From an uncultured Ruminococcus sp. (lineage in GTDB: Bacteria > Bacillota > Clostridia > Lachnospirales > Lachnospiraceae), in the NCBI GenBank assembly GCA_900541505.1, contig UQKK01000007.1, forward strand, positions 2,650 through 66,649: a DNA stretch of 64,000 nucleotides, read 5' to 3'. The notes below the pieces were generated by a model, which saw only the letters and a list, made by a program, of their open reading frames with translations, searched no databases and had not been told where the DNA came from. Positions 2,163 through 53,040 of this stretch are shown here, one piece after another. Positions within the stretch are counted from its first letter, which is position 1; every line of letters starts with the position of its first letter. Position numbers and translations under genes: made by a program.

Positions 2163-2419
2163 TTTTCCTTCTCTCTTTATCCTTTTGATTCTGCGCCCCT
2201 GCCTGCGCAATCGCTTTAGCGACATGTTACCTCATGCGCTCGTGTGCTCTTCGTTCCACTTCGGTCGGCGCAGAACAAATGTCCCCCGGACATTTTGCGC
2301 CCCACCCGGAGGGCTTTTTATTGTATAGGAAATTCGGAATAATTTCCTATACAATAAAAAACTCCCCAACGTTTATCATACGCCGGGAAGCCTTTTTGTA
2401 CAAGCCTTACTTTGCAATG

Positions 2420-6055: not shown

Positions 6056-6282
6056 GTTTCCTCTTTCACCTTTTTGGAATCCGGTTCTGCGCCTCTTCAT
6101 TTCTTCTGTAACGCAGAACGCGGATTTTCAAACTATTTTTTGCCTGCGTTTATTATAGCATGCAATCTATCGGAAAATCACTCCTTTCGTGACAATACCG
6201 GAGGTTTTTTATTCTATAGGACAGTCCAAAGGACTTTCCTCTGAAAATAAAATAAGCCACAGCCTCCGCTGTGACTCATTTA

Positions 6283-44131: not shown

Positions 44132-44200
44132 ACAAAGATGGCGGACATTGCATAAGACAGGCAGGGATTACATGAAACGAGCGGGATTGCGTGAAACAAG

Positions 44201-44285
44201 CAGGAATTGTACGAAACGAGCGGGTATTGCTTCTCCTTCTCCGGCTGTACCGGAATTTCAGGGGAAGCAATACCCGCCCGTTTTC
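44201..44285. terminator. Convergent terminator between treR and metG
   Basis: GAAACGAGCGGGTATTGCTTC ... GAAGCAATACCCGCCCGTTTTCTT. Preceded by three 20-bp tandem repeats (44161-44220). Confidence 0.6.
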
Positions 44286-44328
44286 TTATGTCTGTCTCAT
44301 CTTCTCAGTTTGTCTATCTCCTATCCGC

Positions 44329-46230
44329 CTAGCAGATTTCCGCTCCCGCCGGCATATCCTTTTCCGGTGTGACAAGTGCCAGATTTCCCTTGTCATCCTC
44401 CGCGCAGAGGAGCATACCTTCTGACAAGACTCCCGCCAGCTTCGCAGGTTTTAAATTTACCAGTACCATGACTTTTTTGCCTACCATCTCTTCCGGAGTG
44501 TAGTGGGCTTTGATACCGGACACAATCTGTTTTACCTGACTGCCAATCTTTACCTGGGAGCAGAGCAGTTTTTTCGATTTTTTCACTTCCTCGCAGGCGA
44601 TAATCTCTCCTACCTGGAACTGCATTGCCCCGAACTGCTCAAATGTAATTTCCGGCTTCGCCTCGATATCAATGACCGGACCTTCCTCTTTTTCTTCTTC
44701 CACCGGAGGATGGAGTTCTTCTACCTTTTTCAGCACTTCTTCTACGTCCAGTCTCTGGAACAGAATCTCCGGCTTCTCTGTCACATGTCCGTCTCCGAGC
44801 TGCTCCGCGATTTTCTCACTGGTGGACGGCATGAAGGACTCCAGAAGTTTTGCTCCCGCAGAAATTCCCTGTATCAGATTCCAGAGAACTGTCTCCAGAC
44901 GGTCCTTTTTCGCCTCGTCTTTTGCCAGTACCCACGGCATCGTCTCGTCAATATATTTGTTGCAGCGTTTGAACAGGTTGAAGATTTCTGTGATGGCATC
45001 TGCCACGCGCAGTTCCTCCATCTTCGCCTCCACCGCTTTGGGAGTCTCCTCGATAACGCGCTTCAAATCCGCGTCCACTTCCTCGGCTGCGCCTTTATCT
45101 GTCACGGTTCCGCCGAAATATTTGTTTGTCATGGATACCGTACGGTTTACCAGGTTTCCGAGGGTATTCGCCAAGTCGGAATTTAAACGCTCTACCATCA
45201 GTTCCCAGGAAATAACCCCGTCATTCTCAAAGGGCATCTCATGGAGTACGAAATAACGCACCGCATCCACTCCGAAGAAATCTACCAGCTCATCCGCATA
45301 CAGTACATTTCCTTTGGATTTGCTCATCTTGCCGTCCCCCTGCAAAAGCCACGGATGTCCGAAGACCTGTTTCGGCAGAGGCAGTCCCAGTGCCATCAGG
45401 AAAATTGGCCAGTAAATCGTATGGAAACGGATGATGTCTTTTCCAATCAAATGCAAATCCGCCGGCCACAGCTTGTTGAACTGCTCTGTACTGCCGCCCT
45501 CACAGTCATACCCGATTCCTGTGATATAGTTTGTCAGCGCATCCAGCCATACATAAATCACGTGTTTATCGTCAAAATCCACCGGGATTCCCCATTTGAA
45601 GGAGGTTCTGGATACACAGAGGTCCTGCAGACCCGGCAGAAGGAAGTTATTCATCATTTCGTTCTTGCGGGAAACAGGCTGTATAAATTCCGGGTGGGTG
45701 TTGATATGCTCAATCAGTCTGTCCGCATATTTGCTCATTTTAAAGAAATAAGCCTCTTCTTTGGCAGGCTGAACCTCCCGCCCGCAGTCCGGACATTTGC
45801 CGTCCACAAGCTGGGACTCTGTAAAGAAGGATTCACAGGGAGTACAGTACATTCCCTCGTAGTACCCTTTGTAGATATCCCCCTGCTCATACAGCTTTTT
45901 GAAAATCTTCTGCACCTGCTTCTCATGGTCGTCGTCCGTTGTACGGATGAATTTGTCATAGGAGGTATCCATCAAATCCCAGATTCTCTTAATCTCCGCA
46001 GATACATTGTCTACAAATTCCTTTGGCGTGATTCCCGCTTCCTCCGCCTTTAATTCAATCTTCTGCCCGTGTTCATCCGTCCCTGTCTGGAAGAATACAT
46101 CGTATCCCTGACTCCTCTTGTAACGTGCAATCGCATCGGCGAGCACAATCTCGTATGTGTTCCCGATATGCGGTTTGCCGGATGTGTAGGCAATCGCCGT
46201 TGTGATATAATATTTTGGTTTCTCTGACAT
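44329..46230 (-). CDS. metG: Methionyl-tRNA synthetase with C-terminal tRNA-binding (EMAP/Trbp111-like) domain
   Basis: MSEKPKYYITTAIAYTSGKPHIGN (HIGH), KMSKS, Zn knuckle CPDCG, C-terminal ...FGAMQFQVGEIIACEEV. Start at 46230 with an AAGGAGAG RBS; the ORF-track 5' extension is leader sequence. Confidence 0.9.
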   Translation of the reverse strand: MSEKPKYYITTAIAYTSGKPHIGNTYEIVLADAIARYKRSQGYDVFFQTGTDEHGQKIELKAEEAGITPKEFVDNVSAEIKRIWDLMDTSYDKFIRTTDDDHEKQVQKIFKKLYEQGDIYKGYYEGMYCTPCESFFTESQLVDGKCPDCGREVQPAKEEAYFFKMSKYADRLIEHINTHPEFIQPVSRKNEMMNNFLLPGLQDLCVSRTSFKWGIPVDFDDKHVIYVWLDALTNYITGIGYDCEGGSTEQFNKLWPADLHLIGKDIIRFHTIYWPIFLMALGLPLPKQVFGHPWLLQGDGKMSKSKGNVLYADELVDFFGVDAVRYFVLHEMPFENDGVISWELMVERLNSDLANTLGNLVNRTVSMTNKYFGGTVTDKGAAEEVDADLKRVIEETPKAVEAKMEELRVADAITEIFNLFKRCNKYIDETMPWVLAKDEAKKDRLETVLWNLIQGISAGAKLLESFMPSTSEKIAEQLGDGHVTEKPEILFQRLDVEEVLKKVEELHPPVEEEKEEGPVIDIEAKPEITFEQFGAMQFQVGEIIACEEVKKSKKLLCSQVKIGSQVKQIVSGIKAHYTPEEMVGKKVMVLVNLKPAKLAGVLSEGMLLCAEDDKGNLALVTPEKDMPAGAEIC

Positions 46231-46249
46231 ACTTCTCTCTCCTTTGAAT

Positions 46250-46380
46250 CTAAAATAAATCGTTCCGTTTACGGAACTTTCGCGCCGGGCGCGGTCGCTT
46301 CGGCGACACCTTTTCCTCTTCGCGCCCGTGCGCATCGCACGGATTTTTTATTCAATGGGGAACGAAGTTTCCCATTGAAT
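46250..46380 (-). promoter_or_regulatory. Unclassified conserved structured 5'UTR element, copy A (between the metG T-box terminator and the metG RBS)
   Basis: ~125 nt with 4-5 hairpins. Collinear at nucleotide level with 52378-52500, including compensatory changes in hairpin 1. Confidence 0.5.
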
Positions 46381-46722
46381 AAAAAAATCCCGTCTTCTAT
46401 AAAGAAGACGGGTCATAACCGTGGTACCACTTCTTGGTTCATCCCTGCCTCTCGGCAGAGACCTCAGTAAGTGCCTGAACACTTGCCGCTGTAATGGGCG
46501 GACCCATCACATACTTACATGGAAAATTCACATGTGCAGAACTCTCTGCTGCTTTTCGTTCCTTTCCAGCTCGTATGTGCTGCTCAAAAGCCATCTTCCG
46601 CCAGTCTCCATACATCCCCTCTCACCTGCCGGGATTCTCTGTGATATATCCAAAGGCGTACTCTCTTTTTCATCGCTTTTCGTTATTGTAGTGAAAATCG
46701 TAACACAAAAAACTTTCGTTTG
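46381..46722 (-). promoter_or_regulatory. T-box riboswitch leader (tRNA-Met; AUG specifier) with its promoter
   Basis: Minus strand: promoter TTGACA-17-TACGAT (~46722-46690). AGAGA/GGUGAGAGG stem I. Specifier context gcggaagATGg. T-box GTGGTACCACGG (~46419-46431). Terminator GACCCGTCTTC/GAAGACGGG + TTTTTTT (46381-46413). Confidence 0.7.
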
Positions 46723-52348: not shown

Positions 52349-52377
52349 GTTTCTCCTCCCAGAGGTTTCCTATGAAT

Positions 52378-52500
52378 AAAGAGTTCCGCTTGCGGAACTC
52401 TCGCGCCGAGCGCGGTCGCTTTAGCGACAAACTTCCACTGCGCGCGAGTGCGCATCAGCGGAGCGTTTTATTTAATAGGGAACGAAGTTTCCTATTAAGT
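52378..52500 (-). promoter_or_regulatory. Unclassified conserved structured 5'UTR element, copy B (between the speA leader terminator and the speA RBS)
   Basis: See copy A. Shared blocks: GGAAACTTCGTTCC hairpin, GATGCGCAC..GCGCG, GTCGCNNAAGCGACCGCGCYCGGCGCGARAGTTCCGYAARCGGAAC. Confidence 0.5.
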
Positions 52501-52551
52501 AAAAAACACAGGTGAGTCAGCTTACGCTTCGTGCCGCTTCACCTGTGTTTA
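52501..52551 (-). terminator. Intrinsic terminator inside the speA leader
   Basis: Minus strand AACACAGGTGA-loop-TCACCTGTGTT + TTTTT. Confidence 0.65.
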
Positions 52552-52819
52552 TATCCTGTATCATTCTTCGTTTTATTCCTACGGATGTAACAGATATTGG
52601 ACTTAGAGTCTATATAGCAAATATTTTTACTTTTACTACTCTTATTGACCGTTTCACAAGCTTCGTTTGTCACGAATATAGCGCCGGGATACACCGGCGA
52701 TACCGGTTATAAAGTAACCAACTTATAAAATCTGAGTTCCTCACTCAATCAATAATGCAGCTTGCGCCGCGTAAAATATTTGCATGGAGAACTTTCCAAC
52801 TACCTGCTTTCCATACATT

Positions 52820-52855
52820 CTGTATAGTAGCACAGAAAATCATAAAATTCAAGAA
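52820..52855 (-). promoter_or_regulatory. Putative sigma-A promoter of the speA operon
   Basis: Minus strand TTGAAT, 17 nt, TACTAT. This gives a ~465-nt 5'UTR. Confidence 0.5.
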
Positions 52856-53040
52856 GTTTTACTGCTGTTTTTATACATGTTACAGTTCGCAGGTACCTGC
52901 GAACTGTAACGATTTCAGCCCATTTAAAATGCATCTTCGATGCATGGGGCTGAAATCCTGCGATTCGCCATACTGGCGCATAGCTTGACAGCTAGTGTCA
53001 AGCTTGCGAGTGAACAGTACCCATCTTTCCCTTCCCTGCG

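Follow-up and report, generated by a model that had tools for sequence, protein, structure and literature searches.

Two structured elements in the metG and polyamine leaders of an uncultured Ruminococcus sp. probably belong to a Lachnospiraceae family of DNA repeats lodged behind intrinsic terminators

INTRODUCTION

In a 64,000-nt stretch of the genome of an uncultured Ruminococcus sp. of the family Lachnospiraceae (contig UQKK01000007.1, positions 2,650 to 66,649 of the forward strand; hereafter the window, to whose numbering all positions refer), one hairpin-rich element stands twice, as copy A before metG and as copy B before a polyamine operon. What is the same element doing in the leaders of two such different genes? 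A preliminary description of the locus offered two answers, namely a second cis-regulatory layer shared by metG and the polyamine operon, or a small repeat that colonizes 5' untranslated regions (UTRs) in a fixed orientation. Our analysis indicates that A and B are probably copies of a large Lachnospiraceae family of modular, non-coding DNA repeats that are lodged immediately behind intrinsic terminators.

RESULTS

Two collinear copies stand between a leader terminator and a ribosome-binding site

Both copies were confirmed on the minus strand at the places first given for them, each between a leader terminator and a ribosome-binding site (RBS), and every sub-motif quoted for them is present. 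The motifs GATGCGCAC(G/T)(G/C)GCGCG, GTCGC(CG/TA)AAGCGAC, CGCGC(C/T)CGGCGCG, and GTTCCG(T/C)AA(A/G)CGGAAC are common to A and B, whose first hairpin (hairpin 1) has an identical ACTTCG loop and compensatory changes in its stem. The pairwise alignment gives 83% identity including flanks, and the likeness ends at the element borders, which by family alignment are slightly wider than first given and take in the T-tract shared with the host terminator. Two core motifs of 14-16 nt occur twice each in the window, where shuffled sequences would be expected to yield 0.32 and 0.44 occurrences of these patterns, themselves derived from the two copies. Both copy regions are predicted to fold much more stably than shuffled sequences (z = -7.6 and -7.2), in folds that take in the upstream terminators.

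The gene after copy A encodes methionyl-tRNA synthetase, as judged by Pfam families and source names, and the T-tract of its T-box terminator (46379-46388) is common to that terminator and to hairpin 1 of the copy. Copy B is preceded by a 12-bp hairpin with T6 (T-tract at 52499-52506) and followed by an operon for an Orn/Lys/Arg-decarboxylase, spermidine synthase, agmatinase, saccharopine dehydrogenase, and a carboxynorspermidine-decarboxylase-type enzyme. A covariance model built from 74 family copies (model R1) matched only these two full copies in the window (Table 1).

The element belongs to a multi-copy family

The 19-base core AAGCGACCGCGCNCGGCGCG was searched for in one genome per species and matched at least 119 stretches, of which at least 94 are true copies once chance matches in GC-rich genomes are removed. 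They come from at least about 60 assemblies, almost all of them Lachnospiraceae, and the genera among the matches listed include Roseburia, Coprococcus, Blautia, Dorea, Mediterraneibacter, Sellimonas, and Anaerobutyricum, among others; likewise among the matches listed, single assemblies hold 6, 5, 4, 3, 3, and 3 copies. Model R1 returned 105 matches in the fetched loci (designated here by L numbers), and another scan, with a pattern taken from the left core half, matched 120 further stretches, mostly in human-gut metagenomes and many at contig ends; it added about 100 copies from gut metagenomes. Short-read (Logan) contigs with the window's MATE transporter gene all break ~79 nt upstream of that gene, inside a modular relative of the repeat at 2187-2361, as would be expected of a dispersed repeat. 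Copies from one genome share a subtype (for example, the five JAFTJD copies have the same hairpin 1), which indicates amplification or homogenization within genomes.

No Rfam 15 family matched the element at gathering thresholds in a scan of the whole window, and at E<=10 only far-sub-threshold hairpin matches (miRNA precursors and the like) overlapped A, B, or two consensus-type copies. The families covered by these negatives include T-box, S-box, L-box, ykkC, raiA, Clostridiales-1, ribozymes, and the group II intron, among others, which supports the preliminary description, where the element was not recognized as any of the first five of these; the T-box match lies upstream of copy A, outside the element. 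In addition, the core sequences were not found in the literature searched, where a keyword search for a Lachnospiraceae terminator-associated repeat returned nothing relevant, and the repeat is apparently undescribed as far as these searches can tell.

Matches were also found in collections of phage and plasmid sequences. In INPHARED, nine unannotated fecal "Bacteriophage sp." contigs match at 74-80% identity, and PLSDB holds one region, in an unannotated gap of the Clostridium perfringens plasmid p21-D-5b (L145; NZ_CP119189.1, 52.6-52.9 kb). This region contains one decayed and one intact unit with a fourth core variant, and it adjoins MobC/relaxase and IS21 genes, the accessions of whose proteins also occur in gut Clostridia. 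The repeat is evidently able to ride mobilizable DNA outside Lachnospiraceae chromosomes.

Copies abut intrinsic terminators in the orientation of the terminator

Of 54 well-defined copies, 74% have a stable hairpin whose end falls exactly on the T-tract from which the element starts, compared with 20% of 421 control runs of five or more T in the same loci. The median minimum free energy (MFE) upstream of the T-tract is -15.3 kcal/mol for copies and -5.9 kcal/mol for controls (Mann-Whitney p=1e-20). The host terminators belong to T-boxes (L039, L077, L083, and copy A), S-adenosylmethionine (SAM) riboswitches (L018, L085, and L111), a 6S RNA gene (L051), a tRNA (L104), and many protein genes, and the upstream stop codon lies a median of 107 nt before the element. 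Downstream, the next gene is co-oriented in 59 cases and convergent in 18 of 83 (~22%), with none called in 6, and 16 copies end no more than 40 nt before a start codon. The genes near copies are functionally unrelated.

The placement rule is thus position behind a terminator, in the terminator's orientation, and not in a 5' UTR as such; A and B are found in leaders for no other reason than that their host terminators happen to be attenuators. The preliminary description was therefore right that placement is non-random and orientation-specific, and right about an orientation-specific small repeat, but the site that this repeat occupies is the region downstream of intrinsic terminators rather than the 5' UTR. 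It had further considered that a repeat without preference would show dozens of copies in random orientation: copies are indeed many and dispersed, but their orientation is fixed.

A near-invariant folded core lies between variable hairpins

The anatomy of the family was derived from an alignment of 87 copies (A2) and one of 74 copies (A4). The repeat is a hairpin-rich, non-coding unit of ~125-135 nt that reads, 5' to 3', host T-tract, hairpin 1, hairpin 2, GC-rich core, and terminal hairpin with T-tract. Hairpin 1 is a palindrome of 15-23 bp, ..TTTTTAT-nnn-ATAGGAAA / TTTCCTAT-nnn-ATAAAA.., in which the host terminator's T-tract pairs with an A-tract to form the outer stem (TTTTTTAT...ATAAAAAA), and the two arms just named are the usual inner stem. 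Its loop ranges from 3 to ~40 nt, and because the spacer between the arms varies to this extent, a dif/Xer-like reading of hairpin 1 was rejected. Hairpin 2 is short and takes the forms CGC-UCC-GCG, CCC-UCC-GGG, and GGCAC-UAAC-GUGCC. The core follows as GGAUGCGCACUCGCGCG, a purine-rich stretch of 11-13 nt (AAGAGGAAGUAU and variants), GUCGC-AA-GCGAC, and CGCGCUCGGCGCGAGA; in it, a long-range helix, GCGC-A-CUC-GCGCG / CGCGC-UCG-GCGC, forms around a purine-rich bulge and the hairpin GUCGC-AA-GCGAC (hp3). In the MFE fold of copy A, the left and right core strands pair in this way. The terminal hairpins are of at least five sequence types, including GAAUGUGCC/GGCACAUUC, GAGUUCCGC/GCGGAACUC, and GAGUUCUGC/GCAGAACUC, and a T-rich tail follows them.

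The core is the most conserved part and is near-invariant across genera, whereas the peripheral stems vary with compensatory changes. An alternative fold of the core as separate local hairpins (GCGC-ACUC-GCGC and CGCGC-UCG-GCGCG) is disfavored because the positions that it would place in loops are replaced jointly by Watson-Crick pairs: UC/UC, a mismatch in the consensus core, becomes GG/CC in copy A, is closed by UG/CA in core variant 2, and is closed by UC/GA in L079b and a common metagenome variant. Variant 2 also has CGGCGG/CCGCCG in place of GCGCG/CGCGC, where variants 3 and 4 have GCGCA/UGCGC and GGCGC/GCGCC; in these two, hp3 becomes GUCGC/GCGAU and GUUGCC/GGCAAC. The helices are kept in variants 2 to 4 and in a GAG-ACGCC variant. 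A motif resembling ATAGGAA is found repeatedly: in the left arm, past the element, and, in some subfamilies, in the bulge of the core.

Most copies (75 of 93, 81%) close with a hairpin, of median 9 bp and -12 kcal/mol, and a tail with at least five T in 8 nt, and the opposite strand is also terminator-like, through hairpin 2 and a T-tract. In copy A, the terminal hairpin is weakened to a 6-bp stem of -6.7 kcal/mol, which would be compatible with a need for read-through into metG.

Hairpin 2 and the terminal hairpin contain eight pairs with double changes, and their covariation score of 0.211, much of which reflects a few inherited subtypes, exceeds that of shuffles (0.081) and of slid controls (at most 0.084). 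Hairpin 1 and the terminal hairpin together show 19 G·T and 26 A·C mismatches, that is, wobble pairs are no commoner. Selection acting solely on the RNA of this strand should let G·U through far more readily than A·C, and there is thus no sign of a one-strand RNA constraint. A promoter scan found no promoter-like site in or before the element. This result, the missing G·T excess, the existence of half-copies, and the dispensability between strains described below lead us to favor a DNA repeat, with palindromes maintained as DNA or recently generated, over a dedicated RNA.

A leader peptide or small open reading frame (ORF) was also rejected. An NTG codon does follow a Shine-Dalgarno (SD)-like bulge (..AGGAAGT ATG TCG C..), but N can be A, T, C, or G, and the reading frame is not conserved because the hp3 loop differs by about 1-2 nt; the earlier preference for structure over a leader peptide is upheld. 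As a separate observation, in two 3'-truncated copies on metagenome contigs (L167 and L171) the purine-rich bulge (AAGAGGAGAAAAGTT ATG.. and AAGAAGAAAC ATG..) is followed by apparent coding sequence, and the SD-like stretch of the element may there have been co-opted as an RBS.

Copies are gained, lost, and rearranged at fixed sites

At the copy B site, three alleles occur in one species, on contigs whose SpeA-like proteins show 100% identity. The element is present without an extra module in the window, L134, and L138; in L135, L136, and L139 it has an additional module of 52 nt that separates hairpin 2 from the core; and L137 lacks the element and keeps only ..TTTTTTACTTCATAGGAAAC|CTCTGGG. 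The module (GCGCAAAATGTCCGGGGGACATTTGTTCTGCGCCGACCGAAGTGGAACGAAGA) resembles another small unit, a helix-hairpin-helix with a purine-rich tail, and has GCGCA repeats at its borders; it recurs in the relative before the MATE gene, which has the variant core GCGCA..GTCGCTAAAGCGAT..TGCGC. In a pair of sister species, the same site is empty in L143 (..GTGTTTTTTATATAAAATTTGGGGAGG..) and filled in L142 by another subtype with a decayed core.

The metG leader varies similarly. In L133 (GCA_029782595.1; MetG 86% identical) the site is empty, with the T-box terminator followed by TTTTTTAT-GAAGGAGAG-ATG, and the empty-site sequence at the copy A right flank is TTTTTTATGAAGGAGAGAAG. We also observed that positions 1000-1640 of L133 appear to carry the T-box 3' half, including terminator and RBS, twice in tandem before metG, which is either a real duplication or an assembly artifact. 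A decayed orthologous copy is found in L131 and L132, and L126-L128 have no T-box at metG. In L129 and L130 ("Candidatus Mediterraneibacter caccogallinarum"), an unrelated repeat-rich insert of ~150 nt (1350-1490), made of repeated GGGACA(G/C)(G/A)G(C/T)AAACT.. units and a hairpin, lies between the T-box terminator and the RBS, so a second kind of small repeat occupies the same slot. An empty copy A allele was not found in JGI metagenomes with a gapped anchor pattern.

Elsewhere in the family, copies are truncated at the 5' or 3' end or internally deleted, and tandem arrays occur in L112 (period 145), L090, L004, L018, and L145. In three human-gut metagenome contigs (L163, L174, and L179), a doubly hairpinned insertion of 64 nt (ATTGTCGTACATTTGCAGAGCAAATGTACGGCGCAATAACCTGCGTAGCAGGTTATAGAAAATT) is nested in hp3, and by its sequence this appears to be another mini-element that uses the repeat as its target. 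The left-core scan yielded no cargo-bearing version of the repeat, only truncated copies and this nested insert.

The two ends of the element differ, and its left arm recurs

At its left end the repeat has hairpin 1, which is palindromic in itself, and at its right end another hairpin; no insertion sequence (IS) with these ends was found in the loci. The left arm is repeated just past the element in L039 (16 nt), in copy B (12 nt, TT(A/C)ATAGGAAAC), and in copy A (ATTCAA..GG), and the same locus-specific left-arm sequence can be found three times (direct, inverted, direct) in L039, L092, L080, and copies A and B. Since the virgin-looking L143 site lacks ATAGGAAAC, the left-arm repeat is probably borne by the element, as a terminal direct repeat or as the stump of a second tandem unit. 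The L137 allele, accordingly, probably represents a change from one unit to zero by recombination between repeats and not a pristine target.

Copies in JAUNWP differ, with covariation, in the outer 4-5 bp of hairpin 1, and in WRAQ the left arm of that hairpin varies against a constant right arm. Such outer stems may derive from the target and be copied or corrected across the palindrome, or they may reflect fast compensatory change. The right-end T-tract was also considered as a possible duplicate of the host T-tract; by eye, the right-end sequence follows the subtype more closely than it follows the left T-tract.

Other features of the two loci

The coordinates of the copies, their relatives, and their context are collected in Table 1; the two modular relatives, at 2187-2361 and 6198-6252, are additional to the copies given in the preliminary description. 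The protein adjoining the solo module, a histidine kinase, had no database record on look-up.

The longest mechanical ORFs over metG (44329-46335) and the MATE gene (801-2225), both on the minus strand, begin at ATGs inside elements (GATGCGCAC.. and ATGTCGC..) and are in frame with the genes. Several database homologues are 20-47 amino acids longer at the N terminus (e.g., P0010, P0040, and P0062), and the elements may be a cause of N-terminal over-extension in gene calls; the P0010 extension corresponds to locus L133, where there is no element but the T-box 3' half is apparently duplicated.

Just past the metG terminator (44132-44328, minus strand) lies a strain-variable block of 78 nt composed of about four degenerate tandem units of ~20 nt (CCCGCTCGTTTCGTACAATT-like). 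The block is missing from L121 and L125 but occurs in the window, L120, and L122-L124, with MetG 100% identical, and it is unrelated to the repeat.

The polyamine operon has a leader of ~350 nt (52507-52860, minus strand) that ends in the host terminator of copy B. It hardly changes between species that share only 92% identity in their SpeA-like proteins (alignment A6), no Rfam match to it was found, and it holds a possible short leader ORF (ATGTATGGAAAGCAGG...). From its sequence, we regard it as a candidate for an undescribed attenuator or riboswitch-like leader of polyamine biosynthesis. Just upstream of the promoter region of the operon, a perfect 16+16-nt palindrome (GTTACAGTTCGCAGGT/ACCTGCGAACTGTAAC, 52879-52910), conserved in other strains with one or two changes, may be an operator.

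Table 1. Window positions of the two copies, their modular relatives, and their immediate context (CM, covariance model).
Feature	Position	Strand	Basis and remarks
Copy A, whole repeat, from T-tract/hairpin 1 to T-rich tail	46251..46387	minus	CM R1 85.5 bits, E=2e-18; borders by family alignment
Copy A hairpin 1	46344..46387	minus	20-bp palindrome TTTTTTTATTCAATGGGAAAC / GTTCCCCATTGAATAAAAAA, including the terminator T-tract; inverted repeat, 95% complementary
Copy A GC-rich core	46281..46333	minus	Left strand GCGCACGGGCGCG, purine-rich linker AAGAGGAAAAGGT, hairpin GTCGCCGAAGCGAC, right strand CGCGCCCGGCGCG
Copy A terminal hairpin	46262..46277	minus	GTTCCGTAAACGGAAC; tail GATTTATTTTA at 46251-46261
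Right flank of copy A	46231..46250	minus	GATTCAAAGGAGAGAGAAGT, partial repeat of the left arm (ATTCAA..GG.A); holds the metG RBS
T-box terminator hairpin	46389..46412	minus	Terminator scan: 10-bp stem, then ATTTTTTTAT
T-box leader of metG, context outside the element	46401..46682	minus	Rfam RF00230, 90 bits against a gathering score of 93 bits, E=3e-19
Copy B, whole repeat	52374..52506	minus	CM R1 106 bits, E=2e-23
Leader terminator hairpin of the polyamine operon, context	52504..52550	minus	MFE fold; conserved in other strains and species
122 nt absent from strain contig L137	52375..52496	minus	Alignment A5; borders ambiguous within the direct repeat TT(A/C)ATAGGAAAC
Left arm of hairpin 1, second copy (TTCATAGGAAAC), immediately behind copy B	52365..52376	minus	Only copy left at the "empty" allele
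Modular relative before the MATE transporter RBS	2187..2361	minus	Same hairpin 1 and hairpin 2, extra 52-nt module 2248-2300
Solo hairpin 1 + hairpin 2 module, no core after it	6198..6252	minus	Directly behind the ABC permease terminator 6258-6273

DISCUSSION

A family of repeats behind terminators

The repeat is multi-copy, abuts the terminators of genes of any kind, is gained and lost at the same site, swaps sub-modules, forms arrays, and is found truncated and nested. We propose that it spread, or still spreads, as DNA through a trans-acting activity for which a terminator hairpin and its T-tract would be the landing site. Each copy would rebuild a terminator-like 3' end, behind which further copies could land to form arrays, and the number of units at a site could then shift by recombination between the left-arm/T-tract repeats, which would leave a solo left arm at an empty allele. 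In the window, the element would be co-transcribed in the metG and polyamine leaders upon read-through of the attenuators, and its effect there is probably incidental, amounting to extra structure and perhaps to extra termination or RNase III-type processing.

Several findings weigh against this proposal. The internal core, and not the ends, is best conserved, and its helices are kept by compensatory changes over four or five core variants, as one would more typically see in a folded nucleic acid with a function than in a selfish repeat undergoing decay; orthologous copies are also retained between species, again with compensatory changes in hairpin 1 (L030/L094). Among 2.9 million IMG/VR viral contigs, where a promiscuous mobile element would be expected to turn up, a search gave no true copy and two GC-rich matches due to chance. 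Moreover, when neighbors were scanned in 8-kb stretches, no transposase or recombinase partner was found, and the genes beside or between copies are housekeeping genes (ORFs for an amylase, aconitase, MutS2-like protein, RNase H, deaminase, MATE transporter, histidine kinase, and ABC permease). The repeat is without classical terminal inverted repeats (TIRs), and no universal target-site duplication could be demonstrated: a permutation test of left arm against right flank over all copies gave p=0.10, and although the variable 6 nt of motif-bearing copies (19 of 54) are closer to their own left arm than to those of others (p=0.006, this subset only), we make no claim of a general target-site duplication. 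Finally, L137 keeps an element-like left arm and so may be a deletion scar rather than an untouched target.

Comparison with known repeats and mobile elements

Among mobile elements that home to sites behind intrinsic terminators and share the terminator's orientation, the best known are bacterial class C group II introns, six-domain ribozymes of ~0.7-2.5 kb that usually have a reverse-transcriptase ORF. The present repeat follows the same rule of position and orientation, but it has ~135 nt, no ORF, and no Rfam group II match. [quoted passage not shown] Hairpin 1, which gives a perfect stem of 15-23 bp in a 5' leader, could behave likewise; unlike the present repeat, these MITEs have terminal inverted repeats and defined duplications (TA or other) and show no specificity for terminators. 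The repeat resembles a classical MITE in being small (<~400 bp), non-coding, and multi-copy, with filled and empty sites in close relatives (L137, L143 versus L142, and L133), but it has no TIRs that match a parent IS. PATE elements derived from IS200/IS605 have subterminal hairpins at both ends and no TIRs, insert strand-specifically 3' of a short conserved target, and share their ends with a cognate TnpA (Y1 HUH) element in the same genome. The present repeat has a hairpin at each end, an orientation fixed to the T-tract, and a left junction that is always ..TTTT(T)(A/G)(T/C)..; its end hairpins, however, do not resemble each other, and the sequence of the terminal hairpin varies.

REP/BIME and REPIN elements are extragenic palindromes, often just past genes, that can serve as terminators or mRNA stabilizers, and they form mosaics and arrays. 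In the portion of the literature covered here, REPs are described as 20-40 nt long, with a GTAG/CGTC head, and mobilized by RAYT transposases (PMC3733652). The present repeat differs in its length of ~135 nt, its four distinct hairpins, and the lack of a conserved GTAG/CGTC tag at an end.

Three repeats from Firmicutes come closer. SPRITE is a small non-coding interspersed repeat with a Rho-independent-terminator-like motif and a bias to gene 3' ends (PMC3184786). Our repeat shares the terminator-like end in 81% of copies and the location at gene 3' ends; it is not known to be related to SPRITE in sequence, and it differs in abutting an existing terminator and sharing its T-tract, and in its GC-rich core, modularity, and family-wide distribution. 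The BOX elements of pneumococci (boxA-boxB(n)-boxC) are modular, highly structured, co-transcribed, non-autonomous, and strain-variable (PMC3184786), much as sub-modules of the present repeat are gained or lost between strains and hairpin 1 and hairpin 2 occur as solo modules, but their sequence is another, they are not reported as tied to terminator T-tracts, and no candidate mobilizing IS is known for the present repeat. The bcr1 repeats of the Bacillus cereus group (~155 bp) are intergenic, occupy positions that are not conserved between strains, have T-rich TTTAT flanks, and keep a double-hairpin fold through compensatory changes (PMC3184786). Many of our copies similarly begin with ..TTTTTAT and end with ..CTTTnTTnT, but no clean 5-bp duplication was shown for them, and neither the link to terminators nor the GC-rich core is a bcr1 feature.

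Because it has no TIRs, no clean target-site duplication, and no REP or Rfam match, we class the element as a bacterial non-autonomous structured intergenic repeat. Its unusual and well-supported trait is strict abutment to terminator T-tracts.

Alternative explanations

Because the core is conserved and covaries, we retain, as an unlikely alternative, a structured module selected by the host, useful behind terminators at the RNA or DNA level and copied mainly by recombination or gene conversion. Candidate roles are a backup or bidirectional termination insulator separating adjacent operons, a module for RNA stability or RNase action at 3' or 5' ends, or a platform for an abundant RNA- or DNA-binding protein. 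Such a module would account for the near-invariant core, the compensatory peripheral stems, and the long-range helix and hp3 kept in variant cores, for terminator-like ends on both strands, for the recurrent ATAGGAA-like motif, and for orthologs retained across species with no transposase nearby and no presence in IMG/VR phage contigs. It is harder to reconcile with dispensability between strains that have an identical downstream protein, with the many truncated, internally deleted, or decayed copies, with the absence of a promoter and of any G·T excess over A·C, and with the 16 copies that end close before a start codon, where an added terminator should harm.

More doubtful still is a terminator-homing mobile element whose folded core is recognized by, or acts with, an enzyme of the host or an unlinked one, and whose A-tract and right arm pair with the T-tract and flank of the terminator to choose the site. 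A structure- or pairing-guided mechanism fits the covariation of the JAUNWP outer stems, the threefold left arm, and the absence of TIRs. If true, such an element would be a functional analogue of class C group II introns or guide-directed IS at one-tenth of the size, one that rebuilds a 3' terminator and thereby stacks.

We regard as improbable a multi-copy family of trans-acting small RNA (sRNA) genes of ~130 nt each, expressed from an unrecognized promoter or processed from read-through transcripts. The size, the series of hairpins, the canonical terminator-like 3' end, the strong predicted folding, and the conserved core with its single-stranded purine-rich bulge are what one would look for in an sRNA, but there is no promoter-like site, the element begins inside the T-tract of another terminator, several copies lie in 5' leaders a few nucleotides from the RBS, and half-copies, arrays, and the missing G·U excess also speak against it.

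The dedicated regulatory layer for metG and the polyamine operon is hardly credible: both window copies do occupy the same slot (attenuator terminator, element, Shine-Dalgarno sequence) and other copies lie between T-box or SAM-riboswitch terminators and the regulated gene, but most stand behind ordinary gene-end, tRNA, or 6S RNA terminators, ~22% face a convergent gene, the neighbors form no functionally coherent set of the kind that a cis-regulatory leader RNA would have, and the copies come and go between strains and close species (the polyamine copy is not in L137 and L143, and the metG copy is not in L133 and L126-L130), so this part of the preliminary description is not supported.

Implications for Lachnospiraceae genomes

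Lachnospiraceae, with Roseburia, Coprococcus, Blautia, Dorea, and Mediterraneibacter among others, count among the most abundant human gut bacteria, and a repeat behind many of their terminators has practical effects. It affects assembly, since contigs break there; it may affect annotation through false N-terminal extensions, such as the 668-amino-acid "MetG" ORF; and it affects the discovery of non-coding RNAs by mimicking a conserved 5'-UTR motif behind T-boxes and riboswitches. An element found in two leaders needs a genome-wide census of copies before it is labeled a regulator. The repeat possibly also affects expression by adding to leaders a hairpin of 15-23 bp and a second terminator-like hairpin. 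Since a site may or may not hold a copy and the modules of copies vary, they offer ready-made strain markers. If the specificity for terminators reflects active targeting, the family would provide a compact new system for studying how mobile DNA recognizes terminators.

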